From the sequence record OM386667.1: a DNA stretch of 64,000 nucleotides, one strand, 5' to 3'. This stretch comes from Escherichia phage vB_EcoM_REC. Both the position numbers and the translations under genes were made by a program. Shown in pieces: positions 51,740 through 62,984 of this stretch. Position 1 is the stretch's first letter. Every line of letters begins with the position of its first letter. The notes beneath the pieces were generated by a model that did no database searches, was not told the origin of the DNA, and saw nothing but the letters and a program-made list of their open reading frames with translations.

Positions 51740-51796
51740 TTGACGTTAACCAGGCGGCGGCGTAGTATTCATCTTGTAGGGCGGCAATGGTGCCGC
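51740..51796 (+). promoter_or_regulatory. early promoter-leader module (TTGACG-17-TAGTAT plus hairpin GCGGCA-atgg-TGCCGC)
   Basis: -35 51740-51745, -10 51763-51768, hairpin 51781-51796, ATG at 51818. Confidence 0.6.
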
Positions 51797-51817
51797 TCAC
51801 TATTTGGAGTTAAGATC

Positions 51818-52015
51818 ATGGCAACATTGCACATTGTGGCGAAAGCTGGACAAATCAACGTAGTGGTAAACGGTTTTACTGAGTTCAGTCACCCCCAGGA
51901 TGATCATGAAACGGTTTTATCTTTCATTGATTCCCTGTTAGAAATGGGAGTCATTACAGAAGACCAGCACGCTACAAAATGCAAGCGCGTTAATCAAATC
52001 GCAGGAATAGAATAA
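51818..52015 (+). CDS. early small protein
   Basis: 66 aa from ATG 51818 after RBS GGAG; the track ORF starts at a TTG that is the -35 box. Confidence 0.5.
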   Translation: MATLHIVAKAGQINVVVNGFTEFSHPQDDHETVLSFIDSLLEMGVITEDQHATKCKRVNQIAGIE

Positions 52016-52021
52016 AAACTA

Positions 52022-52080
52022 TTGACAACAAACAACAACCTGATAAGATGTATCACATAGGGCGGGAAGTGGTTTCCCGC
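52022..52080 (+). promoter_or_regulatory. early promoter-leader module (TTGACA-16-TAAGAT plus hairpin GCGGGAA...TTCCCGC)
   Basis: -35 52022-52027, -10 52044-52049, hairpin 52062-52080. Confidence 0.6.
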
Positions 52081-52105
52081 TCGTAACAGAAGAGAGATTA
52101 TCATC

Positions 52106-52378
52106 ATGGCATCATATAGCGCAACAATGATCGTAGCTGGCACAACTGGTAAACCTATGAGCGGTGGCGGATCTTTCGCTAATATCAATATTGACGGGCG
52201 TTTATCCCTGGACGCAGCGATCGCTATTGCACGGGAAACATTTAAGAAAGAATGTAATTTCAACAAGCAAGATTATCTCGGTTTCGCTATTGAAAAAACC
52301 GCGCGCTTTGTTGATTATAAAAGCCCGAAAATGGTTGATACTACACTAAAAGCGCAAGATGTAGCGTTTTTGCTTTAA
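52106..52378 (+). CDS. early small protein
   Basis: 90 aa; RBS AGAGAGA. Confidence 0.5.
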   Translation: MASYSATMIVAGTTGKPMSGGGSFANINIDGRLSLDAAIAIARETFKKECNFNKQDYLGFAIEKTARFVDYKSPKMVDTTLKAQDVAFLL

Positions 52379-52381
52379 GGC

Positions 52382-52436
52382 TTGACATTAACGAATAATT
52401 TGTTAATATGTTACATAAAGCGGGAATAGTTCCCGC
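52382..52436 (+). promoter_or_regulatory. early promoter-leader module (TTGACA-16-TAATAT plus hairpin GCGGGAA-tag-TTCCCGC)
   Basis: -35 52382-52387, -10 52404-52409, hairpin 52420-52436. Confidence 0.6.
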
Positions 52437-52454
52437 TATTTGTAAGGTGGTAGA

Positions 52455-52712
52455 ATGTTTTACATCAAATTAAAAGGTCACGTGATCGCGTTCAAAGATA
52501 ACGCTTTTTACAGATTAGCAAAATATGCGTTAATACATCCCCACTATGTTTATATAAGGGGGCGTGATGAAATAAATATCTTTGATCAAACAACATGCGA
52601 GAACATCGAGATCCGCAAGGTTGGCGTACGTGATTATCGTACATCTTTCTACCCTTGCAAGGATTCAGCAAGTCTTTTTAAAGTATGCCAATTGTTGAAA
52701 AAAGGTGGTTAA
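52455..52712 (+). CDS. early small protein
   Basis: 85 aa; RBS AAGGTGG. Confidence 0.5.
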   Translation: MFYIKLKGHVIAFKDNAFYRLAKYALIHPHYVYIRGRDEINIFDQTTCENIEIRKVGVRDYRTSFYPCKDSASLFKVCQLLKKGG

Positions 52713-52713
52713 T

Positions 52714-53271
52714 ATGGGCCGCGAATATGTGATCCAGTCTTGGGTAAAACATGAAGCAGATGATCCGCGCATCATTCCCGATCATCTTATCGATGAATCC
52801 ACGGGATATAGCGGTGAGCAAATAGGTAACAGATTAGCACGTAGTAACGGCAACGTAAAAGCGCGTTATGTGCGCCCTGGCTGGCTGGCAAATGGTAACG
52901 CTGATTTATCCAGTGCGGAAGATGCGAGCGACGGCGCGAAAGATAATCCTTTGTACAAAGTTGATCCGGCTTTTCGTGTCCTGGATGAATACCCCAGCAA
53001 GATAGCGGCGCTCGATCAGGCCCTGGAAAGTAAGCGCATCACCTGGACCGCTTACAACATGGCAAAAAACGTACTTGATGGTAAATTGATTCAAGCTGAA
53101 AGAAAATTAGCCAAAATTGCAGCCATAGCCCAGGAGGAAGACGAGGAGACAACGGAAGAGGAAGAGTACGAAGAGATCCCGCCGTTGTTGTGTGTTGATG
53201 CTTTTCCTGATTATCAGCCGACAGAGGAAGAAAAAAGGATCGCACTAGAAAACTTTGAAAATAGTCTTTGA
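52714..53271 (+). CDS. early protein with acidic C-terminal region
   Basis: ATG 52714 after AAAGGTGG; acidic stretch EEDEETTEEEEYEE. Confidence 0.5.
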   Translation: MGREYVIQSWVKHEADDPRIIPDHLIDESTGYSGEQIGNRLARSNGNVKARYVRPGWLANGNADLSSAEDASDGAKDNPLYKVDPAFRVLDEYPSKIAALDQALESKRITWTAYNMAKNVLDGKLIQAERKLAKIAAIAQEEDEETTEEEEYEEIPPLLCVDAFPDYQPTEEEKRIALENFENSL

Positions 53272-53324
53272 CATATCGCCGCCACTGGCATAATATTTAC
53301 CACGTAGGGCGGCAATGGTGCCGC
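53268..53324 (+). promoter_or_regulatory. early promoter-leader module (TTGACA-17-TAATAT plus hairpin GCGGCA-atgg-TGCCGC)
   Basis: -35 53268-53273 overlapping the upstream stop, -10 53291-53296, hairpin 53309-53324. Confidence 0.6.
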
Positions 53325-53353
53325 TCATAGTGAAATTATGCAAGAGGCTTACA

Positions 53354-53449
53354 ATGATTAATAAAGAAAATAGCTTGACGGTTGGAACGATTAACGCTAT
53401 CATTCTAGCCGTTCCATTTTGGATTGTAGTAGCGGCTATTATTTTCTAA
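53354..53449 (+). CDS. 31-aa hydrophobic peptide (putative)
   Basis: ATG 53354 after CAAGAGGCT; sits between two promoter modules. Confidence 0.25.
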   Translation: MINKENSLTVGTINAIILAVPFWIVVAAIIF

Positions 53450-53457
53450 AAATATTC

Positions 53458-53517
53458 TTGACAACGTTTTTTAATCTGATAAGATGTATCACATAGGGCG
53501 GCGGAATACTTCCCCGC
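53458..53517 (+). promoter_or_regulatory. early promoter-leader module (TTGACA-16-TAAGAT plus bulged hairpin GCGGCGGAA-tac-TTCCCCGC)
   Basis: -35 53458-53463, -10 53480-53485, hairpin 53498-53517. Confidence 0.55.
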
Positions 53518-53539
53518 CAAAACAAAAAAGGGTAACACA

Positions 53540-53902
53540 ATGAGCAAGCAAATCAATACTATCATGTTAAACCTGGTATCCTTCCGTGATGATATGAAAA
53601 ATTTACCACGTGAAACGGTTGATATTCATGTTTCAGCTTATCGCGCCCTTATTGACATGTTACCGCTAAAACGTGATCAACATGCCGCTAACATGATGCT
53701 TAATGCTATGCTTAAAAAGATGATTCAAACGGATCTCATCCTGGCGTATGAGTATCAAGGGCGCTTATATGCTACTTACAACAAGGCGGTACCTGGTCTG
53801 GGAAGTACCGAAGAGTTGCACGGCTTAAACCTGGATCAGAACACTTGGGATAGTATGCGCCGCGTTATGGTATGGGCCGAAAGCGGTAAAATTTACGAAT
53901 AA
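53540..53902 (+). CDS. early small protein
   Basis: 120 aa. Confidence 0.5.
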   Translation: MSKQINTIMLNLVSFRDDMKNLPRETVDIHVSAYRALIDMLPLKRDQHAANMMLNAMLKKMIQTDLILAYEYQGRLYATYNKAVPGLGSTEELHGLNLDQNTWDSMRRVMVWAESGKIYE

Positions 53903-53907
53903 AACGG

Positions 53908-53963
53908 TTGACACTGTTTAAAATTCTGGTATAGTTTATCACGTAGGGCGGCAATGGTGCCGC
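53908..53963 (+). promoter_or_regulatory. early promoter-leader module (TTGACA-16-TATAGT plus hairpin GCGGCA-atgg-TGCCGC)
   Basis: -35 53908-53913, -10 53930-53935, hairpin 53948-53963. Confidence 0.6.
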
Positions 53964-53984
53964 CAACAATAAAAGGTTAACATC

Positions 53985-54164
53985 ATGACTATCATTGCAA
54001 AAACTGAGATTATAGGTTTAGATTCGATCCTCCTGGTTTATGAGGAAACTTTAAAAATGTATGTAGTGACCTATGGTGATTATGTGCGTGAATACGAATA
54101 CATTGATCTTGCTTTCGAATGTTACATTCGCCAGGTCAATAAAGCTTATAACGATTATCGTTAA
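53985..54164 (+). CDS. early small protein (59 aa), not in ORF track
   Basis: ATG 53985 after AAAAGGTTAA; follows a promoter module. Confidence 0.4.
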   Translation: MTIIAKTEIIGLDSILLVYEETLKMYVVTYGDYVREYEYIDLAFECYIRQVNKAYNDYR

Positions 54165-54183
54165 AAGTTTTAGTCTTATACTA

Positions 54184-54235
54184 TTGACAATGAGTGATAG
54201 TATAAGCATAATAACTTTTATCGGGAATACTTCCC
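54184..54235 (+). promoter_or_regulatory. early promoter-leader module, diverged (TTGACA, hairpin GGGAA-tac-TTCCC)
   Basis: -35 54184-54189, hairpin 54223-54235; -10 less clear. Confidence 0.45.
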
Positions 54236-54261
54236 ACTAACCAAAAAAAGAGAGTAATATC

Positions 54262-54627
54262 ATGGCTATTAATATCAATGTTTCCTCTTATGCTACCCTG
54301 GCTGACACGGCTAAAATTGAATTATCCAGCATTGAGGCGGTGCATATTAGCGCCCGTCGTTGGTTTCAACAGTCCTACGGTAACACATATTTTTCTTTAA
54401 TGGTTGACGTTGAGATCGGCGGTAAACTGATCGAGGTGGTTAACGTTCCGTTTCAATATGGTTATGGTGATCATTTTGATACCGTCGCCCTGGAAGAATT
54501 TAGCAAGGTTATTAATATGGAAGGTAAAGAGTTTTCACGCGGCGCGTATCTTTCCCGTTTTTGCCGTGACAATGGGATCACTGTATACAGTCATGCAAGC
54601 GATGTTAAACGTAAAAAAGATTTATAA
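54262..54627 (+). CDS. early small protein
   Basis: 121 aa; RBS AAGAGAG. Confidence 0.5.
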   Translation: MAININVSSYATLADTAKIELSSIEAVHISARRWFQQSYGNTYFSLMVDVEIGGKLIEVVNVPFQYGYGDHFDTVALEEFSKVINMEGKEFSRGAYLSRFCRDNGITVYSHASDVKRKKDL

Positions 54628-54633
54628 AAAGCA

Positions 54634-54692
54634 TTGACAGCACGAATAAAAAGAGTAAACTGTATTACATAGAGAGCGGGAACACTTCCCGC
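54634..54692 (+). promoter_or_regulatory. early promoter-leader module (TTGACA-16-TAAACT plus hairpin GCGGGAA-cac-TTCCCGC)
   Basis: -35 54634-54639, -10 54656-54661, hairpin 54676-54692. Confidence 0.6.
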
Positions 54693-54716
54693 CTCACTGA
54701 AAAAGAGATTAACATC

Positions 54717-54956
54717 ATGGCTAAATCAAAAATGTTCTTAGGTCACAAAAATAAAACTCATTGGAATGTAAGCCTTTGGATTAATAACGACGAATCATTA
54801 TATCGGTTGGCGAAAGAATTTATCGCCGCTAATACTAATCGTAATGATGCTGCCCGTGATATGATGTTATTCCTGGAACAAACTGGACAAGATAAAACTC
54901 CAGACGGTTTCAAGTATAGTAAAACTGCAATCCGTGCCGCGATGGTTGGAATGTAA
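54717..54956 (+). CDS. early small protein
   Basis: 79 aa. Confidence 0.5.
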   Translation: MAKSKMFLGHKNKTHWNVSLWINNDESLYRLAKEFIAANTNRNDAARDMMLFLEQTGQDKTPDGFKYSKTAIRAAMVGM

Positions 54957-54965
54957 TAAAAACAG

Positions 54966-55024
54966 TTGACAACGTTTAAAATTAGTGTAAGATGTATCAC
55001 ATAGGGCGGGAAATGGTTTCCCGC
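54966..55024 (+). promoter_or_regulatory. early promoter-leader module (TTGACA-16-TAAGAT plus hairpin GCGGGAA...TTCCCGC)
   Basis: -35 54966-54971, -10 54988-54993, hairpin 55006-55024. Confidence 0.6.
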
Positions 55025-55047
55025 TCACAACAGAGAGATTAAAGATT

Positions 55048-55275
55048 ATGGCTATCAATATTGTTCGCGTATCCGGCACCGTTGGCTATTCCCAGGTTGT
55101 AGCAGTTGTAACAAACAAAAAGATTAATGATGTATGTGAGATCTTGAATAAGTGGGCTATTGCTAATTTTGGAGAATATGCAAGCGTCGAGTACATCGAA
55201 TCCTACCAGGTGCCGACCATCAGCCTAACCGATCTCAACGTTGATCGCCTGTTATGCCTGGATGAATTAAACTAA
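55048..55275 (+). CDS. early small protein
   Basis: 75 aa. Confidence 0.5.
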   Translation: MAINIVRVSGTVGYSQVVAVVTNKKINDVCEILNKWAIANFGEYASVEYIESYQVPTISLTDLNVDRLLCLDELN

Positions 55276-55283
55276 AAATAATA

Positions 55284-55339
55284 TTGACAAGATAACTAAA
55301 ATCAGTAAAATGTAATGCATAGGGCGGCAATAGTGCCGC
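55284..55339 (+). promoter_or_regulatory. early promoter-leader module (TTGACA-16-TAAAAT plus hairpin GCGGCA-atag-TGCCGC)
   Basis: -35 55284-55289, -10 55306-55311, hairpin 55324-55339. Confidence 0.6.
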
Positions 55340-55362
55340 TCATAGTAAGAGGGATTATCAAA

Positions 55363-55578
55363 ATGGCTAATATCCGCACACTGTTAAAAAATGCAAGTCA
55401 AGTTTTATTTTCAGATGACGAGTATTTCAATAAAGACATTACAGGCGTGAAAAATTTAAAAGACGTTAAGGATGTAATAGGTATTCGAGGATCTTTACGT
55501 AAAGGTGACTACTACGGCAATAAAGTACAATATAAATTAAATCAGTCTTATGATTTTACTTTGACAATTATTTCATAA
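55363..55578 (+). CDS. early small protein
   Basis: 71 aa from ATG 55363 after AGAGGGA; track ORF starts upstream inside the hairpin. Confidence 0.5.
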   Translation: MANIRTLLKNASQVLFSDDEYFNKDITGVKNLKDVKDVIGIRGSLRKGDYYGNKVQYKLNQSYDFTLTIIS

Positions 55579-55584
55579 AACCGC

Positions 55585-55646
55585 TTGCAATCTTAATAAA
55601 ATAAAGTAAACTGTATTACATCAAGGCGGCGGAATGGTCCACCGCC
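55585..55646 (+). promoter_or_regulatory. early promoter-leader module (TTGCAA-16-TAAACT plus hairpin GGCGGCGGA-atgg-TCCACCGCC)
   Basis: -35 55585-55590, -10 55607-55612, hairpin 55625-55646. Confidence 0.55.
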
Positions 55647-55670
55647 TAACAAAGAGAAGAGGAAAACATC

Positions 55671-55838
55671 ATGATCACTTTCGCTACCCGTGAAGCCGCT
55701 CGCAACGTTGCCCGTAAAGTTAACGCCGCCAACCTGGGCGCTACGCTTAAAGCCCCTGTAAAAGATGAATCAGGAAAATGGATCTTCCCTGGTCTGCGTC
55801 ATGCTGACAAGTTAGGTACTTTAAGCCTTAAAAAATAA
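55671..55838 (+). CDS. early small protein (55 aa), not in ORF track
   Basis: ATG 55671 after AGAGGAAAAC; N-terminus MITFA shared with the next gene. Confidence 0.4.
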   Translation: MITFATREAARNVARKVNAANLGATLKAPVKDESGKWIFPGLRHADKLGTLSLKK

Positions 55839-55841
55839 TCG

Positions 55842-55879
55842 TTGACTTTTCGTTATAGCGCCTTATAATGGGCGCTATA
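55842..55879 (+). promoter_or_regulatory. early promoter (TTGACT-16-TATAAT) with the -10 box inside the loop of hairpin TATAGCGCC...GGCGCTATA
   Basis: -35 55842-55847, -10 55864-55869, inverted repeat 55854-55879. Confidence 0.55.
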
Positions 55880-55912
55880 GAGAAGAGAAACCACTACTAA
55901 CAAGGAAACATC

Positions 55913-56134
55913 ATGATCACTTTCGCTATTGTCGCCGTTGTCGCTGGTCAGGTTTACATAAACGATACATTCACCACAGAAGACAAGGCCGCAGGAGACA
56001 TAACCGCCGTTTACAATGAGTGCAAGGCAGTAGAAAGGATGTTAGCGCCTTGTATGCTAATGAGTGAACGCCAGGACGGGATAACAGTATTTACTAACAT
56101 TGAAACAGGGTACCAAATGGTAGTAACAAAATAA
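55913..56134 (+). CDS. early small protein
   Basis: 73 aa; N-terminus MITFAIVAVVAG. Confidence 0.5.
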   Translation: MITFAIVAVVAGQVYINDTFTTEDKAAGDITAVYNECKAVERMLAPCMLMSERQDGITVFTNIETGYQMVVTK

Positions 56135-56137
56135 AGC

Positions 56138-56194
56138 TTGACACGGATTTAATTTTTAGTAAACTGTTACACGTAGGGCGGGAATAGTTCCCGC
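56138..56194 (+). promoter_or_regulatory. early promoter-leader module (TTGACA-16-TAAACT plus hairpin GCGGGAA-tag-TTCCCGC)
   Basis: -35 56138-56143, -10 56160-56165, hairpin 56178-56194. Confidence 0.6.
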
Positions 56195-56213
56195 TCAAAA
56201 AGAGAGAAAGACC

Positions 56214-56567
56214 ATGAAAGCACAAAATGCAATTAAAGAGTACATCCTTGCCGCTATCGATTTTAATGATTACGGTATTACAACCGAAAAAGAGAAGATC
56301 GCGGAATTGATGCGCCGTTTTAATTCCGAGTACTGGTACCCTGATAACCAATCACGTTTTAATTATAGTATTGTTAAAGCACTTGCATCATGGTTACAAG
56401 GCTTGCCATCAGATATCAATATCGCTTTCGAATATTGGGAAATTGATCGCCTGTTAACATCCTGGGGATACATTAAAGAGAATAGCAGCGATGATAAAAT
56501 CCAACGAGAAAGGGAAAATTATTGGCTTTATATTGCAGGCGTGATCCTTGCTTGCTCTTATGAATGA
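56214..56567 (+). CDS. early small protein
   Basis: 117 aa. Confidence 0.5.
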   Translation: MKAQNAIKEYILAAIDFNDYGITTEKEKIAELMRRFNSEYWYPDNQSRFNYSIVKALASWLQGLPSDINIAFEYWEIDRLLTSWGYIKENSSDDKIQRERENYWLYIAGVILACSYE

Positions 56568-56573
56568 TAAACC

Positions 56574-56626
56574 TTGACAATTTTACAAAACAGTTTAAAT
56601 TAACAATATAGCGGCAATGGTGCCGC
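56574..56626 (+). promoter_or_regulatory. early promoter-leader module (TTGACA, hairpin GCGGCA-atgg-TGCCGC)
   Basis: -35 56574-56579, hairpin 56611-56626; -10 probably TTAAAT around 56595. Confidence 0.5.
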
Positions 56627-56646
56627 TCATATGAAGAGGAAACAAA

Positions 56647-56793
56647 ATGAATACATCTAATCGCGCAGAAAAAATTCAATCTTCCAAGATCCGCAAGGCC
56701 TGGAACGAGGAAGTGATCCGCAAAGGCGACAAGCGCAATAAAACAAAGCGCGGGAAGAGTGACAAATATAATTGGATGGATTTAGAGGATTAA
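56647..56793 (+). CDS. early small basic protein (48 aa), not in ORF track
   Basis: ATG 56647 after GAAGAGGAAAC; Lys/Arg-rich. Confidence 0.4.
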   Translation: MNTSNRAEKIQSSKIRKAWNEEVIRKGDKRNKTKRGKSDKYNWMDLED

Positions 56794-56799
56794 CATAAC

Positions 56800-56829
56800 A
56801 AGGGGCGCACCAAGCGCCCTTTCTTTTTA
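56800..56829 (+). terminator. rho-independent terminator
   Basis: GGGCGC-accaa-GCGCCC followed by TTTCTTTTT. Confidence 0.7.
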
Positions 56830-56849
56830 CATGTAGAGGATAAACAAAG

Positions 56850-57035
56850 ATGACTTTAAGCGAGCTTAAAACAGCCTACAACGCAACGTTAAAAATAGCC
56901 GTGCGTTACCGTGACGAATACGGTTTTATTGCGCAGGGCGTGATCCTGGGCTTTTCTGACGATGGTTTGATCTATGTTGATGCACATCACAATAAGGTTA
57001 AACCTGAAAACGTCATTAGCATAAAATATCTTTAA
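56850..57035 (+). CDS. early small protein
   Basis: 61 aa; no promoter module of its own, lies just after a terminator. Confidence 0.45.
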   Translation: MTLSELKTAYNATLKIAVRYRDEYGFIAQGVILGFSDDGLIYVDAHHNKVKPENVISIKYL

Positions 57036-57041
57036 AAGTGG

Positions 57042-57097
57042 TTGACACCATAACCGGACCTGTTAAACTGTATTACATCAGGCGGGGAATAGTTCCC
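57042..57097 (+). promoter_or_regulatory. early promoter-leader module (TTGACA-16-TAAACT plus hairpin GGGAA-tag-TTCCC)
   Basis: -35 57042-57047, -10 57064-57069, hairpin 57085-57097. Confidence 0.55.
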
Positions 57098-57119
57098 ACC
57101 ATACAAAAAGGTAAATATT

Positions 57120-57326
57120 ATGATCACCGCAAAACAAGAAAAAATCATTATCGACGTTGCAGCCGTTGCCGCTATTGCTATTATTGGATCTTATTATGAC
57201 ACCGCGCGTCCTTCCTCCTTGCATGAGGTCGCCGCCGTTGCATCAGTTGGCGTACTGTTTTACGTTGGTAAACGCTATTTATCACCAATGATTAACAAGC
57301 TGACACCGTGGAAAAATAAAGGTTGA
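57120..57326 (+). CDS. early small membrane protein
   Basis: 68 aa; hydrophobic AAVAAIAIIGS. Confidence 0.5.
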   Translation: MITAKQEKIIIDVAAVAAIAIIGSYYDTARPSSLHEVAAVASVGVLFYVGKRYLSPMINKLTPWKNKG

Positions 57327-57377
57327 TCCTGTTTTATATTGTGTTATAGTTATCGTGTAGGGCGGCAATGGTGCCGC
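57323..57377 (+). promoter_or_regulatory. early promoter-leader module (TTGATC-16-TATAGT plus hairpin GCGGCA-atgg-TGCCGC)
   Basis: -35 57323-57328 overlapping the upstream stop, -10 57345-57350, hairpin 57362-57377. Confidence 0.55.
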
Positions 57378-57397
57378 GCCCTTTTGAGGATGCAATC

Positions 57398-57682
57398 ATG
57401 AGTAAAGCTAACACCGTGCTAATGTTTTCCCTGATTAATGATTCCGCTTACTTGTCCAACATGACGCAGGAGGGTAACACATTAACGGCAACATTCACCA
57501 ATAAGCTTGACCGGGTGATCATCGTCTCACTGAAAACAGTTAGTAAAGGCTTTTACTCGTTAGCTTATCATTGGATCACCGATACCGATGAGACAAGCCA
57601 GGACTATAGCACCCCTTTCCCTGAATCAATGGCACGGGAGGTCATCGCCGCCGTTGTAAATGATGGTTTGTTTACTGCATAA
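57398..57682 (+). CDS. early small protein
   Basis: 94 aa from ATG 57398; track ORF starts at the ATG inside the hairpin loop. Confidence 0.5.
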   Translation: MSKANTVLMFSLINDSAYLSNMTQEGNTLTATFTNKLDRVIIVSLKTVSKGFYSLAYHWITDTDETSQDYSTPFPESMAREVIAAVVNDGLFTA

Positions 57683-57700
57683 AATAATTTAGAAAAAGGC

Positions 57701-57757
57701 TTGCAATCATTTTGAGATAGTGTATATTTAATTCATAGGGCGGCGGGAATAGTTCCC
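57701..57757 (+). promoter_or_regulatory. early promoter-leader module (TTGCAA-16-TATATT plus hairpin GGGAA-tag-TTCCC)
   Basis: -35 57701-57706, -10 57723-57728, hairpin 57745-57757. Confidence 0.5.
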
Positions 57758-57780
57758 AAAGCAAACGAGAGGATTACACG

Positions 57781-57900
57781 ATGAGCAAGTACACAGTAGA
57801 ATACACGGTAGAGAATCCGGCAGTATCCGAAGGTAAAAAGATGACATTTGCCATCAGTATAATCGCTTTCGTTGTCACTATCTTATCAATCATCTTATAA
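57781..57900 (+). CDS. early small membrane peptide (39 aa), not in ORF track
   Basis: ATG 57781 after ACGAGAGGA; hydrophobic C-terminal half. Confidence 0.35.
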   Translation: MSKYTVEYTVENPAVSEGKKMTFAISIIAFVVTILSIIL

Positions 57901-57910
57901 GGTGCACACC

Positions 57911-58072
57911 ATGAAAACAACAGATATTATCAAAGAGATCGCCCTTGCCGCTGACGTTGAGATCGAGGAAGTGATCGCGCTCAATCTTACAGAAAACGAT
58001 CTGCGCAACTATGAAGCGGAAAGCGTGAAAGCAAGTGGCGCGGTCCTGGCATATAATCCGGCTAACAAATAG
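57911..58072 (+). CDS. early small protein
   Basis: 53 aa from ATG 57911; longer track ORF overlaps the previous peptide. Confidence 0.4.
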   Translation: MKTTDIIKEIALAADVEIEEVIALNLTENDLRNYEAESVKASGAVLAYNPANK

Positions 58073-58073
58073 T

Positions 58074-58128
58074 TTGACAAGCTGAATCAACCTGATAAGA
58101 TGTATCACATAGGGGCGACAAGCGCCCC
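58074..58128 (+). promoter_or_regulatory. early promoter-leader module (TTGACA-16-TAAGAT plus hairpin GGGGCG-acaag-CGCCCC)
   Basis: -35 58074-58079, -10 58096-58101, hairpin 58112-58128. Confidence 0.6.
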
Positions 58129-58152
58129 GCCTAACAGAAGAGAGAAAAAATC

Positions 58153-58431
58153 ATGACCATCGTTAAATTAACAACCGAAGAAATGAAAACAATGTTAACC
58201 ACTAATTTACAAAATTGGAAAATTGGTGTTGACGTTGAAACAGTGTGCAAATTGAACGACAAACTAACACCGGACGACATTGAAACGATCATCCGTGCAG
58301 ATTTCTATGATGCTTTATACGATGATTCCACAGTCCTTGAAACGATGTTGGATAACGCTTGGATCAATCCCGATTTGGCGGCTTATGGTCATCTTGCCTT
58401 TGAAGCCATCCATAATGTTTATAATCGTTAA
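58153..58431 (+). CDS. early small protein
   Basis: 92 aa. Confidence 0.5.
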   Translation: MTIVKLTTEEMKTMLTTNLQNWKIGVDVETVCKLNDKLTPDDIETIIRADFYDALYDDSTVLETMLDNAWINPDLAAYGHLAFEAIHNVYNR

Positions 58432-58441
58432 GGGGGATAAC

Positions 58442-58558
58442 ATGAATCCGAAAGATATGCAAGCATGGAAAGGGTACGACGATCTAAGCGCCTTGCGCAA
58501 TAAGTCAAGCCGTAACCTTAGACGGTTGGAAGCAAAGAAAAAGAAAAAAATAGTTTGA
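58442..58558 (+). CDS. early small basic peptide (38 aa)
   Basis: ATG 58442 after AAGGGGGATAAC. Confidence 0.35.
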   Translation: MNPKDMQAWKGYDDLSALRNKSSRNLRRLEAKKKKKIV

Positions 58559-58610
58559 CAAGTCCGCCTAGTCTGATAATATGTATCTTGTAGGGCGGCA
58601 ATGGTGCCGC
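58555..58610 (+). promoter_or_regulatory. early promoter-leader module (TTGACA-16-TAATAT plus hairpin GCGGCA-atgg-TGCCGC)
   Basis: -35 58555-58560 overlapping the upstream stop, -10 58577-58582, hairpin 58595-58610. Confidence 0.6.
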
Positions 58611-58631
58611 TCACAAGAAGAGAGAAAAATC

Positions 58632-58916
58632 ATGAAAATCACAAAAAGCCTGACTAATTATGCAGCACGTCGCGGATTATGTTTAACCGTTGAAAACTTA
58701 GGGAAAGAAGACTTTTTGTGTTTTTGGGAGCTTGAAAATGATTGCGAGTGGATGTTTTCTTATTCTATCTGCGAAGATCAAAACGGTTGTTTGTTAACCT
58801 GGCGCGGTAATATCTATTTACCGGAAGAAATTAAAGAAGAGTTACCAGGTACGATCATGACAGAGAGACAGCTTAAGGAAGTGATCAATTTTGTAGGGCA
58901 AAACATTAAAAAATAA
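58632..58916 (+). CDS. early small Cys-containing protein
   Basis: 94 aa from ATG 58632; track ORF starts inside the promoter. Confidence 0.5.
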   Translation: MKITKSLTNYAARRGLCLTVENLGKEDFLCFWELENDCEWMFSYSICEDQNGCLLTWRGNIYLPEEIKEELPGTIMTERQLKEVINFVGQNIKK

Positions 58917-58917: not shown

Positions 58918-58978
58918 TTGACAGTAGGCAAACAACGTAGTAAAGTTTATTACATAGGGCGGCGGAATGGTCCACCGC
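58918..58978 (+). promoter_or_regulatory. early promoter-leader module (TTGACA-17-TAAAGT plus hairpin GCGGCGGA-atgg-TCCACCGC)
   Basis: -35 58918-58923, -10 58941-58946, hairpin 58959-58978. Confidence 0.55.
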
Positions 58979-59001
58979 TCACAACAGAAGAGAAACAAAT
59001 C

Positions 59002-59172
59002 ATGATCCCGACTATGTTTTATGTATCGCGCAAAGGTCACAATATTTTTTGGTCTGAAGATTTAAATGAAGCCATGACGTTTGCCCGTGATCGTGTCGCT
59101 ATCGGTGGCGTTAACATCACCGTAACCGATGAAAACGGCATTGAATACTATAACGGCAACGATGAAGAGTAA
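59002..59172 (+). CDS. early small protein
   Basis: 56 aa from ATG 59002; track ORF starts at the TTG of the -35 box. Confidence 0.45.
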   Translation: MIPTMFYVSRKGHNIFWSEDLNEAMTFARDRVAIGGVNITVTDENGIEYYNGNDEE

Positions 59173-59178
59173 TCAACA

Positions 59179-59198
59179 AGGCGGGATTAATCCCGCCT
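59179..59198 (+). other. intergenic stem-loop without U-tract (candidate RNA processing or stability element)
   Basis: AGGCGGGA-ttaa-TCCCGCCT, 8-bp perfect stem, not followed by a T-run; similar U-less GC hairpins at about 60541-60558 and 60823-60842. Confidence 0.4.
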
Positions 59199-59216: not shown

Positions 59217-59363
59217 ATGAAAACTTTCAACGCAACAGCCTCGACAATTGGTTATATTATTACAGTGCAAGCCGTGGATCTGGTAGCAGCAACAAACAAG
59301 ATTAAAAGAATGATCCCGATAGGCAGTGAATTTTCCGTTTGGGAAGTAAAAAATAAATCTTGA
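59217..59363 (+). CDS. early small protein (48 aa)
   Basis: ATG 59217 after AAAGGGTAAT; stop overlaps the next -35 box. Confidence 0.35.
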   Translation: MKTFNATASTIGYIITVQAVDLVAATNKIKRMIPIGSEFSVWEVKNKS

Positions 59364-59421
59364 CGATAATTTGTTATCTGATAGAATGTATTTCGTAGGG
59401 CGGGGCAATAAGGCAACGCCC
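59360..59421 (+). promoter_or_regulatory. early promoter-leader module (TTGACG-16-TAGAAT plus imperfect hairpin GGGCG...CGCCC)
   Basis: -35 59360-59365, -10 59382-59387, hairpin about 59398-59421. Confidence 0.5.
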
Positions 59422-59439
59422 ATTAATGAGGGTAGAATC

Positions 59440-59544
59440 ATGTTAGAGAAAATTTTCACGGTTGTAGTAGTTGGCCTGGCGTTATCGGTTGGAGTGGTTG
59501 CAACTATGGCTAACATGATCCTATCTTCCCACGGTATCGGTTAA
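59440..59544 (+). CDS. early small membrane peptide (34 aa)
   Basis: ATG 59440 after GAGGGTAGAATC; hydrophobic. Confidence 0.3.
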   Translation: MLEKIFTVVVVGLALSVGVVATMANMILSSHGIG

Positions 59545-59554
59545 GGTGAAACAA

Positions 59555-59770
59555 ATGATCACGAACAAAACAGGCAAAACGGAATTTTTACGCGGCTTAC
59601 AAGTTGGTAAGCCTGAGATCTGGCATTGCACGAAGTCCGCGCATAATGAAATGAAAGATTTCACCGCTACTTTACAACGTGTTAAAATATCTATCACACA
59701 GAAAAAAGCCTTGTTGGTAGTAGAAAACGAGATCCCGCAAACTATTATTATTGTCGAGCGTACAGCATGA
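59555..59770 (+). CDS. early small protein
   Basis: 71 aa from ATG 59555 after AAGGTGA. Confidence 0.45.
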   Translation: MITNKTGKTEFLRGLQVGKPEIWHCTKSAHNEMKDFTATLQRVKISITQKKALLVVENEIPQTIIIVERTA

Positions 59771-60153: not shown

Positions 60154-60159
60154 AAAGTA

Positions 60160-60215
60160 TTGACACAGATCGCCAGTGTGCTAATATTTACCACGTAGGG
60201 CGGCAATGGTGCCGC
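60160..60215 (+). promoter_or_regulatory. early promoter-leader module (TTGACA-16-TAATAT plus hairpin GCGGCA-atgg-TGCCGC)
   Basis: -35 60160-60165, -10 60182-60187, hairpin 60200-60215. Confidence 0.6.
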
Positions 60216-60234
60216 CGATAATGAGGAAAGTAAA

Positions 60235-60534
60235 ATGGAAACTATCGCTATTGTTACCGTAGAAAAACTGGTTGTTGGTGATGTATTCGCGTTAATGGTG
60301 CCTAACAGCAGCAAACTGGGTGCTTATGAAGTAATGGATCATAAAAATGAATCATTTGGCGACGGTTGCACAATGGCGGTAAAATCTTTAAAGGATGGAA
60401 TCATCCGCCAGGCTAACTGGCACAAAGGGAATCAAGTCGGTTTAATATCAGCTAATTTCTTGCCAGAAGAGCAAACGTTAGACCAACTATCAGGCGGTAA
60501 GACGTTAGCCGAACTACTGGAAACAGCGATCTAA
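60235..60534 (+). CDS. early small protein
   Basis: 99 aa. Confidence 0.5.
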   Translation: METIAIVTVEKLVVGDVFALMVPNSSKLGAYEVMDHKNESFGDGCTMAVKSLKDGIIRQANWHKGNQVGLISANFLPEEQTLDQLSGGKTLAELLETAI

Positions 60535-60578
60535 TCAACAAAGGGGCGGCAACGCCCCACATCAGAAAGGAAAAGATT

Positions 60579-60815
60579 ATGAGTATTGCAACAGTATTAA
60601 ACGCCGTTAAAACCGCTGAATCATCCGGCTTGCATGTTGAGCTTATAGATCAACCAGGTGGCGATCTCCTTGTCCAGGTTTACCCGCCGAAAGTAGGGGA
60701 TGATTATTATTGGGCTTATTCTGATACGTTCGAACAAGTAGACACGAAAGCGATCACGGCTTTTATTTTAAAAGCTATTGAAGAAAATAACTTTCATCAT
60801 AACATCAATCAATAA
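60579..60815 (+). CDS. early small protein
   Basis: 78 aa; preceded by a U-less GC hairpin. Confidence 0.5.
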   Translation: MSIATVLNAVKTAESSGLHVELIDQPGGDLLVQVYPPKVGDDYYWAYSDTFEQVDTKAITAFILKAIEENNFHHNINQ

Positions 60816-60869
60816 ACCATAAGCGGGGCGGTAACGCCCCATTAAACGCAATAGGAAGAGGATAGACGC

Positions 60870-61154
60870 ATGAAAAAGATGATCGCAGTAGTTGCCCTGG
60901 TTGTTGGTATTAACGCGCCTGTAATGGCGAAAGAGTTGCCAGAATCCATCACGTTAACCGATATTAACGCAGTGAACCGGATCGGCGTTAATTATCGCCT
61001 ATGCCTTGCCGCTAAAACTTTCCAGGACGGCACAACAGAGTACTACGGATTCGAGGGTGTCCGGTGCGGTGAGCTTGCACGCGACCTTAAGGAAGATCCA
61101 GACCTTGAGGCCATACCGATGACCGTAAACGGTAAAGCCCAGGTAAACCGCTAA
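60870..61154 (+). CDS. early secreted small protein
   Basis: 94 aa; signal peptide MKKMIAVVALVVGINAPVMA. Confidence 0.5.
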   Translation: MKKMIAVVALVVGINAPVMAKELPESITLTDINAVNRIGVNYRLCLAAKTFQDGTTEYYGFEGVRCGELARDLKEDPDLEAIPMTVNGKAQVNR

Positions 61155-61156
61155 CC

Positions 61157-61291
61157 ATGAGAAAGGTAATCATCACAATGGGGATCGTAGTAGCAACGCT
61201 GGCGCTTATCCCCTTCATGGTTGAATATGTGCTGATTAATGTTGTCCTGGTAGTCAGTGACCTATTGGAAACGGTTGGCACCTGGTTTTAA
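61157..61291 (+). CDS. early small membrane peptide (44 aa)
   Basis: ATG 61157 immediately after the upstream stop; hydrophobic. Confidence 0.3.
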   Translation: MRKVIITMGIVVATLALIPFMVEYVLINVVLVVSDLLETVGTWF

Positions 61292-61303
61292 GGAGTAATA
61301 AAA

Positions 61304-61423
61304 ATGAATGCAGAACAAGTTAGAAAGGTATTAGCAGCGTTGCGGTATCACAACCATAGCAAGGTAAAAAATGATCCTGATTATGTGGATCAAGCCTGGA
61401 AGAAGACACATTGCAAGCTATAA
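61304..61423 (+). CDS. early small peptide (39 aa)
   Basis: ATG 61304 after AAGGAGTAATAA. Confidence 0.3.
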   Translation: MNAEQVRKVLAALRYHNHSKVKNDPDYVDQAWKKTHCKL

Positions 61424-61504
61424 GCCATATGCAAGAATTGTTTAAGCGTATGACAGAGAAAAACAGATCTGATTATATAGGTGACGAGATCTAATCTTTA
61501 CAAA

Positions 61505-61535
61505 AACAGGGCTTGCTTTTGTCCTGTTTTTTGTT
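61505..61535 (+). terminator. possible terminator
   Basis: AAACAGG-gcttgcttttgt-CCTGTTTTTTG; long loop, low confidence. Confidence 0.3.
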
Positions 61536-61671
61536 ATGCTTATTGAACGGGCGGCACTTGGGAGCAGGGGAAGATAATCACCGGAAGACCCCGCTATATA
61601 TTGATAGCTAATACCTATCAAACAACAAAACATCAAAGAGATAAACTATCAAATCTTTACAATCCCACCTA

Positions 61672-61729
61672 TTGACACCGGATCACGCTTACATTATTAT
61701 TTATCACGTAGGGCGGGAATGTTTCCCAC
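61672..61729 (+). promoter_or_regulatory. early promoter-leader module (TTGACA-17-TATTAT plus hairpin GCGGGAA-tgt-TTCCCAC)
   Basis: -35 61672-61677, -10 61695-61700, hairpin 61713-61729. Confidence 0.55.
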
Positions 61730-61748
61730 CTGATTTAGGAGTCATATC

Positions 61749-61982
61749 ATGATCGAACAAATTAAAAGCACTACACCAAATGTTAACGGTAATGTTTCTC
61801 ACTTTATCGGGGATAATGAAAGAGGTACACCGTACGCCGCCGTAACCGTTCAACCTAACGGGGATTATTGGTTTACCGTGTACGGATCTTACTCTTTTGG
61901 ACGTTCGGCACATGATAAGATCTTGCAAGTGGTTAAGCCTACTGGGAAGAATATCACAGCAGAAAAATTTTATAAAAAATAA
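61749..61982 (+). CDS. early small protein
   Basis: 77 aa; RBS TTAGGAG. Confidence 0.5.
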   Translation: MIEQIKSTTPNVNGNVSHFIGDNERGTPYAAVTVQPNGDYWFTVYGSYSFGRSAHDKILQVVKPTGKNITAEKFYKK

Positions 61983-61983
61983 C

Positions 61984-62012
61984 TTGCTTTATAGCTCCTG
62001 TTAACTTATAGT
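61984..62012 (+). promoter_or_regulatory. weak promoter candidate (TTGCTT-17-TATAGT)
   Basis: -35 61984-61989, -10 62007-62012; followed by a different GC element rather than the canonical hairpin. Confidence 0.35.
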
Positions 62013-62060
62013 TATTGCGTAGGGCGAGCAATACAGCAAGCCCACAAAGAGGAAAATAAA

Positions 62061-62429
62061 ATGAGCAAATCAGCAATTAAAGCACTTGAAAAAGCACAAG
62101 AAGTGATCGCAACGTCAACCACTGGCGCAAAGGTTAATCTCGTTGGTTATCTGACAGATGAAACTATCCGTAAAAATTGGCGTAATGCTGATTTACTCGC
62201 TTGCTTATTGATTAATAGTGTCGCTAATGCTTTCCAGTGTGAAACAGCCGAGAGCCTGGAGGAAAACTTGTTTGATAATATGGATCAAGCCATTGAAACC
62301 TATATACAATCAAACCTGGATAGCTGGAACAGTAAAACATGGCCCGACAATTTACGCGATACAACTGATCAACTGATCCGCCTTGCCCTGATGGTTGAAC
62401 GCGATAACGTTCACAACCGCACAAAGTAA
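62061..62429 (+). CDS. early protein
   Basis: 122 aa; RBS AAGAGGAAAA. Confidence 0.5.
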   Translation: MSKSAIKALEKAQEVIATSTTGAKVNLVGYLTDETIRKNWRNADLLACLLINSVANAFQCETAESLEENLFDNMDQAIETYIQSNLDSWNSKTWPDNLRDTTDQLIRLALMVERDNVHNRTK

Positions 62430-62439
62430 GATTATACAA

Positions 62440-62460
62440 GGGGCGCACTAAGCGCCCTTT
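62440..62460 (+). terminator. weak terminator or stem-loop
   Basis: GGGCGC-actaa-GCGCCC followed by TTT only. Confidence 0.4.
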
Positions 62461-62495
62461 AACGTAAAGAAATGTAAATAATGCGCTATCCCCTA

Positions 62496-62524
62496 TTGAC
62501 AGGGGATCGGCGTTATATTATATT
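62496..62524 (+). promoter_or_regulatory. promoter (TTGACA-17-TATATT), no leader hairpin
   Basis: -35 62496-62501 embedded in palindrome CCCCT-attgac-AGGGG, -10 62519-62524. Confidence 0.45.
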
Positions 62525-62564
62525 TAACTCACTGGCAGCAAACAACGAAACAAAGGACAACACC

Positions 62565-62984
62565 ATGAACATTAAATCAAATAATCCAGCTTACTCCTTC
62601 GATAACGCTTTTTGTCACGGTAGCGCCGCCAAAGGCTTCGAAATCGATGGTAAATTGGTTATCGTGAACGTTGACGGGGAAGAGGTTGCAGTATATCCGG
62701 TAAACGATGTTAAAAGCCGTTTACAATGCCGCATGGATGTTACCGCATATCAGCTTGATCCGATCCGTGTAGTTGCCCTGGTATTAGAGGAAGAGATCAA
62801 AGCAATGCATCACAGTAATAAGTTTATTGGTGACGCGCAGGATAATATGAACGTTTGCCGCCATAAAGTTAATGAAGCACTGAAAGAATGCGGTTTTAAG
62901 GATCTGATGATCAAACGTGATGAAAAATTCCGCTTTCGTAATGACCTGGCAAACCGGATCTACTCAATCTATGAAGCGTTATAA
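62565..62984 (+). CDS. early protein
   Basis: 139 aa from ATG 62565; track ORF starts at an ATG upstream of the promoter. Confidence 0.5.
   Translation: MNIKSNNPAYSFDNAFCHGSAAKGFEIDGKLVIVNVDGEEVAVYPVNDVKSRLQCRMDVTAYQLDPIRVVALVLEEEIKAMHHSNKFIGDAQDNMNVCRHKVNEALKECGFKDLMIKRDEKFRFRNDLANRIYSIYEAL

Follow-up and report, generated by a model that had tools for sequence, protein, structure and literature searches.

The early-gene block of Escherichia phage vB_EcoM_REC (OM386667.1) carries an array of small regulatory modules, in which a near-consensus sigma70 promoter is followed at a fixed distance by a GC-rich leader hairpin, a ribosome-binding site and the start codon of a small gene. The whole stretch analysed, 64,000 nucleotides (nt) long, is called the window, and positions are those of the window unless another record is named. 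We found 23 such modules on the + strand between 51740 and 62063, read by eye and with mechanical scans. As judged by sequence comparison, the array appears to consist of mobile regulatory cassettes like the promoter-early stem-loops (PeSLs) of T4-type phages, with a stem-loop that is placed, and has evolved, in the way characteristic of a 5' mRNA stabiliser. Among the roles considered for the hairpin, 5'-terminal stabilisation of the mRNA is the best supported; jointly with the cassette-array and recombination explanation, we give it about an even chance.

The array lies well above chance expectation. A strict scan of the block recovered 20 promoters and 16 modules, compared with 1.3 and 0.015, respectively, in 200 dinucleotide-preserving shuffles. 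A general promoter scan gave 60 promoter-like sites, compared with 35.8 ± 5.4 in shuffles, and the sites scoring at least 10/12 lay essentially all on the + strand. Two further strong promoters are present in the block, one with a hairpin that encloses its -10 (55842) and one without a hairpin (62496). Together with the 23 modules, they account for the "about 25" promoter and hairpin units of the first-pass annotation, which had been made from the sequence alone. Its assignment of a near-consensus sigma70 promoter to nearly every gene also holds, with a promoter in nearly every intergenic gap. The same annotation counted about 36 small genes; small genes are indeed many, and 34 small + strand coding sequences (CDS) from ~51.8 kb to ~63.0 kb are annotated in the record of Escherichia phage vB_EcoM_ESCO37 (OM386659.1, 149 kb, Stephanstirmvirinae, Phapecoctavirus). 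Window 51700-58700 is 100% identical to ESCO37, and more than 200 related phage records also match this segment.

Module coordinates start at the -35, and promoters are written as -35 hexamer, spacer length and -10 hexamer. In the 23 modules, TTGACA or a near variant is followed by 16-17 nt, a -10 of the TAAGAT/TAATAT/TAAACT/TATAGT type, 8-11 nt, the hairpin, a linker and ATG; an A-rich tract lies upstream of the promoters, after the preceding stop codon. The promoter scores at least 10/12 (TTGACA-16/17-TAnnnT) in 20 modules. The hairpins are GC-rich and 17-26 nt long, with loops of 3-8 nt; 21 are robust (-7.8 to -15 kcal/mol) and two are weak (54184, -4.0 kcal/mol; 57701, -6.4 kcal/mol). The linker of 16-27 nt is A/C-rich and contains a purine-rich Shine-Dalgarno (SD) sequence. 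The measured 8-11 nt between -10 and hairpin agree with the earlier estimate of within about 12 nt. Three of the four stems quoted in the first-pass annotation (GCGGCA/TGCCGC, GCGGGAA/TTCCCGC and GGGGCG/CGCCCC) were found, whereas the fourth, TATAGCGCC/GGCGCTATA, exists but wraps the -10 TATAAT at 55842. This inverted repeat encloses the -10 and so cannot be the 5'-terminal fold of the transcript that starts there; it is not a leader hairpin.

We propose that the block is an array of self-contained immediate-early cassettes that would be read by the host sigma70 RNA polymerase. Each cassette would comprise, in order, an A-rich tract, TTGACA, 16-17 nt, the -10, C-R-T-A (the purine being the predicted +1), the hairpin, an open A/C linker of ~20 nt with the SD, and ATG.

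Position and pairing of the leader hairpin

The hairpin keeps a fixed place relative to the promoter and a looser one relative to the start codon. Measured in five early blocks with 46 distinct modules in total, the interval between -10 and stem has a standard deviation of 0.73 nt (range 8-11), whereas that between stem and start codon has one of 2.78 nt (range 11-28; Levene p = 1e-6). Most stems are preceded by the four bases C-A-T-A or C-G-T-A, and the flank C-R-T-A-GGG is kept even in the distant phage SSBI34. In E. coli, the modal transcription start lies 7-8 nt past the -10, with a pyrimidine at -1 and a purine at +1. Predicted from this promoter geometry, +1 is likely the conserved purine 7-8 nt past the -10, which leaves ~3 unpaired nt before the stem, and the hairpin would span roughly +4 to +24/+25 of the predicted transcript.

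This anchoring bears on the idea that the hairpin insulates the translation context. A local fold upstream of the SD would stop the ribosome site from pairing with variable upstream RNA, in read-through as well as primary transcripts, and each swapped-in gene would then be translated predictably. Stem-loops upstream of a ribosome-binding site do increase reporter expression (PMC6146998). Moreover, a median of 21 nt separates the end of the hairpin from the ATG, every prediction leaves the linker and SD open, and the promoterless hairpins at 59179, 60543 and 60824 also lie ~20-30 nt before the next ATG. However, the leader hairpin is fixed to the -10 and is four times looser relative to the ATG, and the promoterless hairpins are fixed to the preceding stop codon and resemble 3'-end elements. 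We regard a translational insulator as rather unlikely.

A covariance model (CM) was built from 12 well-aligned copies of the hairpin. Its search of 240 kb of this and related phages (eight sources) returned 92 matches, 87 on the coding strand and none outside early blocks; similarly, the complete 149-kb ESCO37 genome had no match outside its early block. As MAFFT alone lost the register of the 3' arms, 63 distinct sequences were aligned under guidance of the model and covariation was scored on that alignment. Standard pairs occupy 93.5% of the cells; shuffles give 87.5 ± 0.8 and slid registers 33-59%. Both sides have changed in 27 cells, compared with 9.8 ± 2.4 in shuffles, and such changes affect 4 of the 8 pairs. 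The three central pairs (GCG/CGC; G-C, C-G, G-C) are near-invariant, being present in 59-62 of the sequences. Furthermore, 25 cells are of the G:U type and 5 of the A:C type; pairing is thus better on the transcribed strand, mostly through one inherited position. This asymmetry tracks the direction of transcription, including in the lone minus-strand copy of the module, which lies outside the block.

The predicted leaders fold as one hairpin at the extreme 5' end with the SD open, at -10 to -16 kcal/mol and with z-scores of -2.8 to -4.5 in 9 of 12. As internal controls, the leaders of hairpin-less promoters, several strong ones of which lie in the minus-strand cluster, gave z-scores of -2.0 to +1.5 and a minimum free energy (MFE) of 0 to -7 kcal/mol.

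Because the alignment leans to the model and many copies are paralogous, alignment-free and orthologue-based tests were added. In orthologous modules of three close relatives (92-97% identical), the substitution density of stems is 1.6%, whereas loops reach 5.2%, the spacer of the promoter 5.0% and third codon positions 5.1%; the -35 hexamer has 0.6% and the -10 has 1.5%. Stems therefore change about 3-fold more slowly than third codon positions (Fisher p = 4e-6) or loops (p = 0.002). Half of the apparent "breaking" changes in stems belong to module 52022, where the whole hairpin is replaced: four phages carry three unrelated hairpins at this site (GGGCGGGAAGTGGTTTCCCGCTC, GGGCGGCGGAATGGTCCA(G)CCGCTC and GGGGCGACAAGCGCCCC), with near-identical promoters and SD/start-codon regions. 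Loops evolve at the neutral rate, stems are slow and whole hairpins are swapped, and selection therefore acts on the presence of a hairpin and not on its sequence. Collectively, these results show that what is kept in the transcribed strand is the fold of the hairpin, with no particular sequence required and the loop irrelevant.

Selection on RNA structure, not on a DNA operator, had been argued in the first-pass annotation from compensatory differences among stems. Covariation, the 25:5 ratio, slow stems, variable stem and loop lengths and whole-hairpin replacement all agree with that argument, as does the folding and covariation analysis of the leaders that it had suggested. The inverted repeat as a DNA element, either the operator of a dimeric early-promoter repressor or a cruciform or single-strand hairpin that tunes the promoter, is accordingly hard to credit, and we consider it extremely unlikely. 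It would account for the overlap with +4 to +25, where a bound protein would block RNA polymerase, and for module 55842, which has its -10 in the loop of a 9-bp inverted repeat. Yet neither the sequence of the half-sites nor the length and spacing of the arms is constant (17-26 nt; loops 3-8 nt), and the compensatory changes and G:T wobbles are found on one strand only.

Cassette exchange and distribution among relatives

Comparison with relatives shows the ~80-nt cassettes as apparent joints of homologous recombination or gene conversion, at which genes, or hairpins alone, are lost, gained or swapped. The resemblance of the cassettes to one another would allow them to act in this way. This behaviour was overlooked in the first-pass annotation and is added here. 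Relative to four relatives, ~26 of 35 breakpoints (indels or replacements) fall inside modules, which make up ~28% of the block. Phages Ro121c4YLVW and SKA64 are without the gene at 61749-61982 and have one hybrid module, composed of the promoter of 61672 and the hairpin and ribosome-binding site of 61984; the crossover lies in the shared CGTAGGGCG. SKA64 has an extra gene cassette between two hairpin copies at module 60160, Mt1B1_P17 and Ro121c4YLVW have a ~310-nt cassette inserted at module 55842, and module 58074 is missing from Ro121c4YLVW together with its gene. Hybrid junctions within shared module sequence are the signature of module-to-module homologous exchange. Short-patch gene conversion, with modules 58918 and 58074 as donors, would explain the appearance of the hairpin swaps at module 52022. 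In ESCO37 as deposited, the -10 and hairpin of module 52022 are present as a 56-nt tandem duplication (7015-7102 of the segment examined). The window does not have it and so differs in its letters from OM386659.1; duplication can thus take place within a module.

These observations raise the question of whether the hairpin has any RNA function. The cassettes might persist as recombination repeats in the manner of PeSLs, for which mini-circle formation has been demonstrated in RB49 and phi1, and the hairpin might be kept by gene conversion and DNA-level needs. The hybrid modules, cassette indels, hairpin swaps and intramodule duplication are what such repeats would leave. However, homologous recombination favours identity, not compensatory diversity, and 38 distinct hairpins still pair. 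Stems are constrained while loops drift, the G:U/A:C asymmetry follows the direction of transcription, and crossovers lie in shared flanks (CGTAGGGCG, AGAAGAGAGA), as in ordinary homology-driven exchange. A purely recombinational element is, in our estimate, quite unlikely. Integron-like, structure-specific recombination at the hairpins was also considered and is superfluous, the crossovers in the shared flanks being those of ordinary homologous exchange.

With module 9 as the query, sequence-similar modules were found in 141 phage records. The same geometry with different stems occurs in phi92 (Justusliebigvirus; 11 modules in the region examined), FV3 (Vequintavirus) and SSBI34 (Vequintavirinae), with stems such as GGGCGAC/GTCGCCC in SSBI34; FV3 also has GGGGCAA/TTGCCCC and GGGGAG/CTCCCC behind weaker promoters (9/12). 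Over seven early blocks, a hairpin stands behind 88 of 106 strong promoters, with 38 distinct hairpin sequences and at least 17 loop sequences. At SKA64 9656-9675, the hairpin GGGCGGCACTATTGCCGCCC has the apical loop inverted (ATAG to CTAT) relative to the common GGGCGGCAATAGTGCCGCTC, and the CM matches both strands. Nine records labelled "Campylobacter phage" (e.g. B15, A145, A110a) carry near-identical modules of the coliphage type, and their host labels look doubtful.

Proposed function of the hairpin

As a 5'-terminal stabiliser, the stem-loop would withhold a single-stranded 5' end from RppH and from the 5'-monophosphate sensor of RNase E. The withheld end would lengthen the life of the short early mRNAs, as with the leader stem-loops of ompA, papA and T7 gene 10. 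RppH and RNase E require single-stranded 5' termini, which is the accepted explanation for stabilising 5' secondary structure (review PMC3997798), and the T7 gene 10 5' stem-loop increases mRNA abundance and expression (PMC6146998). This role is best supported because it fits the promoter-anchored position, the indifference to loop and stem sequence and the open downstream leader. The first-pass annotation had listed 5'-end protection, cis-acting antitermination and a site for an RNA-binding regulator as candidates; the first fits best, and cis-antitermination and a regulator that reads the loop are unlikely. It is a speculation that short, separately transcribed messages need protection more than the long operons of the hairpin-less promoters.

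Several points weigh against this explanation. The invariant core and the RTA flank represent more sequence conservation than a purely structural role needs, and the covariation signal derives partly from duplicated paralogues and from the fitting of the alignment to the model. That the hairpin is 5'-terminal is predicted from promoter geometry, the searched literature containing no start-site, half-life or 3'-end data for this phage group. A start at the A two bases further upstream would leave 5 nt unpaired and give weak protection, and even ~3 unpaired nt may permit some RppH action. In addition, RNase E also has a direct mode of entry that does not depend on the 5' end. When it scans along the RNA, it gets past internal stem-loops with ease (PMC9943677). 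The hairpin is internal in read-through transcripts and therefore would not protect them equally. As for recombination, breakpoints at intergenic modules are partly expected for any viable recombinant.

The conserved core leads to the alternative that the hairpin is a tag, with a phage or host RNA-binding factor reading the 5' R-U-A and the GCG/CGC stem base on early transcripts. Such a factor could silence these transcripts jointly when early expression gives way to middle expression, or could spare them the mRNA decay that the phage induces. The invariance of the core pairs (59-62 of 63 sequences) and the C-R-T-A-GGG flank kept in SSBI34 exceed the needs of stability, and the element marks exactly one temporal or positional gene class. 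However, loops evolve at the neutral rate with at least 17 sequences, hairpin length varies from 17 to 26 nt, and hairpins with a different base (GGGGCG for GGGCGG) are swapped at an orthologous site. No RNA-binding protein was identified by profile matches among the small proteins tested, all of which are of unknown function, and common descent with gene conversion can account for the conservation of the core. We consider a tag of this kind unlikely. Its extension, that the GCG/CGC base and 5' R-U-A form a family-wide "self" mark on the immediate-early transcripts of rV5/phi92-like phages that a dedicated factor reads, we also hold to be rather improbable. If it were true, the factor would spare phage messages during host mRNA destruction or silence the early class at the onset of middle expression, and the array would be a post-transcriptional regulon set by an RNA 5' tag, beyond a set of passive stabilisers.

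Transcription elongation offers a further possible target. On the + strand of the block, canonical intrinsic terminators are found just at 56800, 61502 and 62998, for ~25 promoters. The hairpin could act as a terminator or attenuator against upstream read-through, the role proposed for PeSLs, or as a nut/put-like antitermination site. With ~23 promoters and three canonical terminators, read-through must be managed, and one PeSL stem-loop cut downstream lacZ expression as strongly as rrnB T1. In contrast to a terminator, no leader hairpin has a U-tract behind it (the downstream sequence is A/C-rich), and none is among the + strand terminator-like sites. Acting as a terminator, an element at +4 to +25 would cut short the transcripts of its own promoter, and the fixed position downstream of the -10 is unlike that in PeSLs (upstream of or within the promoter). 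As for antitermination, the loops are unconserved, the stem is single, and a boxA-like GCUC occurs in only ~1/3 of the distinct copies, where it is base-paired. An action on elongation is very unlikely in our view. The boxA resemblance itself (CGCUCACAACA compared with CGCUCUUA) was rejected, with the U present in only ~1/3 of the distinct copies and the string base-paired. Rfam gave 0 matches in the whole window at gathering score, and a permissive scan of the block gave one chance-level match (E = 0.65).

Neighbouring features and known systems

The coordinates of the modules and other features are collected in Table 1.

Table 1. Promoter and hairpin modules, atypical cassettes and terminators in the window. 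Energies are in kcal/mol; a dash-separated promoter entry gives the -35, spacer length and -10.
Feature	Position	Strand	Promoter	Hairpin or stem	ATG	Further details
Module 1	51740..51820	+	TTGACG-17-TAGTAT	51779-51798 GGGCGGCAATGGTGCCGCTC	51818	-12.9 kcal/mol; offset 10; CM 43.5 bits
Module 2	52022..52108	+	TTGACA-16-TAAGAT	52060-52082 GGGCGGGAAGTGGTTTCCCGCTC	52106	z -2.9; two other hairpin types in orthologues
Module 3	52382..52457	+	TTGACA-16-TAATAT	52419-52437 AGCGGGAATAGTTCCCGCT	52455	-11.4 kcal/mol; offset 9
Module 4	53268..53356	+	TTGACA-17-TAATAT	53307-53326	53354	31-amino-acid open reading frame (ORF); CM 45.4 bits
Module 5	53458..53542	+	TTGACA-16-TAAGAT	53497-53518 GGCGGCGGAATACTTCCCCGCC	53540	z -2.8
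Module 6	53908..53987	+	TTGACA-16-TATAGT	53947-53964 GGCGGCAATGGTGCCGCC	53985	CM 45.2 bits
Module 7, weak hairpin	54184..54264	+	TTGACA-17-CATAAT	54223-54235 GGGAATACTTCCC	54262	-4.0
Module 8	54634..54719	+	TTGACA-16-TAAACT	54672-54695 GAGAGCGGGAACACTTCCCGCCTC	54717	z -4.5
Module 9	54966..55050	+	TTGACA-16-TAAGAT	55004-55026 GGGCGGGAAATGGTTTCCCGCTC	55048	Query for 141-record search
Module 10	55284..55365	+	TTGACA-16-TAAAAT	55322-55341 GGGCGGCAATAGTGCCGCTC	55363	CM 40.4 bits
Module 11	55585..55673	+	TTGCAA-16-TAAACT	55624-55647 AGGCGGCGGAATGGTCCACCGCCT	55671	z -3.9
Atypical module	55842..55915	+	TTGACT-16-TATAAT	55854-55879 TATAGCGCC/GGCGCTATA	55913	9-bp inverted repeat with -10 in loop
Module 12	56138..56216	+	TTGACA-16-TAAACT	56176-56196 GGGCGGGAATAGTTCCCGCTC	56214	z -4.2
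Module 13	56574..56649	+	TTGACA-16-TAAATT	56610-56627 AGCGGCAATGGTGCCGCT	56647	
Module 14	57042..57122	+	TTGACA-16-TAAACT	57081-57100 GGCGGGGAATAGTTCCCACC	57120	-7.8
Module 15	57323..57400	+	TTGATC-16-TATAGT	57362-57377 (core GCGGCAATGGTGCCGC)	57398	CM 37.2 bits
Module 16, weak hairpin	57701..57783	+	TTGCAA-16-TATATT	57740-57762	57781	-6.4; z -0.6
Module 17	58074..58155	+	TTGACA-16-TAAGAT	58112-58128 GGGGCGACAAGCGCCCC	58153	z -3.0
Module 18	58555..58634	+	TTGACA-16-TAATAT	58589-58615 (core GGGCGGCAATGGTGCCGCTC)	58632	Extra flanking pairs
Module 19	58918..59004	+	TTGACA-17-TAAAGT	58957-58980 GGGCGGCGGAATGGTCCACCGCTC	59002	z -3.9
Module 20	59360..59442	+	TTGACG-16-TAGAAT	59398-59421 GGGCGGGGCAATAAGGCAACGCCC	59440	z -4.1
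Module 21	60160..60237	+	TTGACA-16-TAATAT	60199-60216 GGCGGCAATGGTGCCGCC	60235	
Module 22	61672..61751	+	TTGACA-17-TATTAT	61711-61731 GGGCGGGAATGTTTCCCACCT	61749	Recombination partner of module 23
Module 23	61984..62063	+	TTGCTT-17-TATAGT	62022-62043 GGGCGAGCAATACAGCAAGCCC	62061	z -4.4
Promoter without hairpin	62496..62568	+	TTGACA-17-TATATT		62566	Last block gene; leader MFE -0.5
Lone module outside block	29843..29921	minus	TTGACA-16-TAAGAT	29881-29863 GCGGGGAATAGTTCCCCGC	29845	-35 at 29921; integral membrane protein gene
Promoterless GC hairpin	59179..59198	+		GGCGGGATTAATCCCGCC		Just past stop codon; no U-run
Intrinsic terminator	56800..56832	+		AAGGGGCGCACCAAGCGCCCTTT + CTTTTT		Identical copy at 62998 (shared sequence AAGGGGCGCACCAAGCGCCCTTTCTTTTT)
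Intrinsic terminator	61502..61541	+		11-bp stem + T-run		In non-coding gap 61430-61670; unrelated to other two; ~281-nt insertion adjoining in relatives
Intrinsic terminator, block end	62998..63030	+				Same sequence as 56800 copy (AAGGGGCGCACCAAGCGCCCTTTCTTTTT)

Based on the ESCO37 annotation, tail-fibre genes occupy window 1-9000 on the + strand and a long replication and nucleotide-metabolism cluster occupies 9066-44217 on the minus strand, with a few + strand genes after it. The block is followed by ~1 kb of non-coding DNA, which stops 234 nt short of the end of the ESCO37 record. This tail (63030-64000), at the genome end, is A/C-rich and strand-asymmetric, and a repeat screen of 62950-64000 returned weak repeats only. 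In the phi92 record, a direct terminal repeat is annotated ~1.1 kb past the last gene of the equivalent block.

The lone minus-strand module sits inside the replication cluster. As the annotated CDS start of its membrane protein gene (~29896) overlaps the promoter, ATG 29845 is probably the true start. Within the block, GC hairpins without promoters at 60543-60558, 60824-60841 and 62433-62455 are of the same class as that at 59179; they lie 8-12 nt past stop codons, often after "tcaacaa", and have no U-run. These hairpins form a second class, distinct from the leader hairpins, and are possibly 3'-end stabilisers or weak attenuators. The gap at 61430-61670 (~240 nt) has no ORF and holds, besides the terminator, a GC-rich segment GGCGGCACTTGGGAGCAGGGGAAG...CCCCGC. 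In relatives it shows a 201-nt deletion or a ~281-nt insertion, neither bounded by modules.

The small genes were described in the first-pass annotation as the likely host-takeover and anti-defence repertoire, which the protein searches do not bear out. All 30 small proteins tested fall into PHROGs of unknown function or have no match, one being a generic membrane protein, and none of the 10 largest reaches the gathering threshold in Pfam. Because PHROG and Pfam give no functions, the label remains an assumption, a reasonable guess from position and size. The 71-amino-acid product of window 55363-55578 bears the name "phosphoribosylpyrophosphate synthetase" in the records of ESCO37 and relatives. 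Its sole match is a PHROG of unknown function, and the name is probably an over-annotation. Gene product gp11 of rV5 is annotated as Srd-like. A link to Srd and RNase E was considered and rejected: tblastn found no Srd homologue in the window or the ESCO37 segments searched, and the annotation of record 45001-84960, outside the tblastn search, lists nothing Srd-like.

Therapy cocktails and model collections make use of Phapecoctavirus, phi92-like and rV5-like phages, which are common coliphages, and their early programme is essentially unannotated. The array provides a concrete architecture for immediate-early expression, with one strong host promoter and one predicted 5' hairpin per small gene, from which early genes, true start codons and promoters can be annotated from sequence. 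It also supplies ~40 natural compact promoter/5'-hairpin/ribosome-binding-site variants as engineering parts. Should a stabilising role be confirmed for the hairpins, no single genome would be known to hold a larger natural series of 5'-end protectors. Established principles are not contradicted; rather, this is an unusually clean, family-wide case that links mRNA-leader design to accessory-gene turnover.

Small RNA or DNA hairpins tied to phage early promoters are also known from the nut sites of lambda, the put sites of HK022 and the promoters of N4. Lambda boxB needs a conserved purine-rich loop and boxA, HK022 put is a two-stem element of roughly 70 nt, and the N4 promoter hairpins lie upstream of +1 and are read by the virion RNA polymerase. 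In contrast, the loops here are unconserved, and a single short stem lies downstream of the predicted +1 of a host sigma70-type promoter.

Promoter arrays have been reported in the same phage super-group, with 33 sigma70-like early promoters in rV5 (PMC3606486) and AAAA-N3-TGTTGAC-N19-TATAAT concentrated among short ORFs in the Certrevirus phages CB7/CR3/CR8/CR9 (PMC7344957). They share with the present block the region of short hypothetical ORFs, the promoter consensus and the A-rich upstream tract. However, these accounts concern promoters only: the CB7 paper (PMC7344957) does not contain the words "stem" or "hairpin", and "stem-loop" in the rV5 paper (PMC3606486) refers to terminator symbols. 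For phAPEC8, phi92, rV5, PVP-SE1, Phapecoctavirus and Vequintavirus, only promoter accounts, and no earlier description of leader hairpins, were found in the openly searchable literature, which excludes the subscription-only genome reports (phAPEC8, phi92, PVP-SE1). The leader hairpin, its covariation and the shuffling of cassettes are what is new relative to the rV5 and Certrevirus accounts.

The ompA, papA and T7 gene 10 leaders are similar in having a stable hairpin within a few nt of the 5' end (predicted here) and an open ribosome-binding site after it, with structure expected to matter over sequence. They differ in that they are single proven elements on individual genes, whereas the present hairpins, predicted from sequence, are repeated on ~23 consecutive genes and conserved in two phage subfamilies.

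The closest described system is the PeSL of the T4-type phages RB49/phi1, PST/T4 and nt-1/KVP40 (Arbiol et al. 2010, PMC2839356; Comeau et al. 2014, PMC4122927). PeSLs are cassettes that combine a sigma70 early promoter with a stem-loop in hyperplastic regions, where they mediate modular shuffling and mini-circle formation (PMC2839356, PMC4122927). Both systems consist of intergenic repeats of ~80-100 nt in which a near-consensus sigma70 promoter has AT-rich DNA upstream of it, a GC stem-loop is present, and SD and ATG form the 3' end. Additionally, both occur in clusters, in a plastic region rich in small ORFans, and at sites where close relatives differ by indels or replacements, with hybrid cassettes at crossovers. 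In contrast, the PeSL stem-loop varies in position: it may separate the -35 from the -10, overlap the -10 or immediately precede the promoter, whereas here it is fixed 8-11 nt downstream of the -10 in 23 of the 24 hairpin-bearing block cassettes; only module 55842 has the PeSL geometry, as in RB49. The PeSL stem-loop is interpreted (and in one case shown) as a terminator of upstream transcription, whereas here it lies inside its own predicted transcript and has no U-tract. The lineages also differ, being Tevenvirinae for PeSLs and Stephanstirmvirinae and Vequintavirinae here. The idea of mobile regulatory cassettes is thus extended beyond T4-type phages with a different internal layout, which suggests convergent solutions for the plug-and-play turnover of accessory genes.

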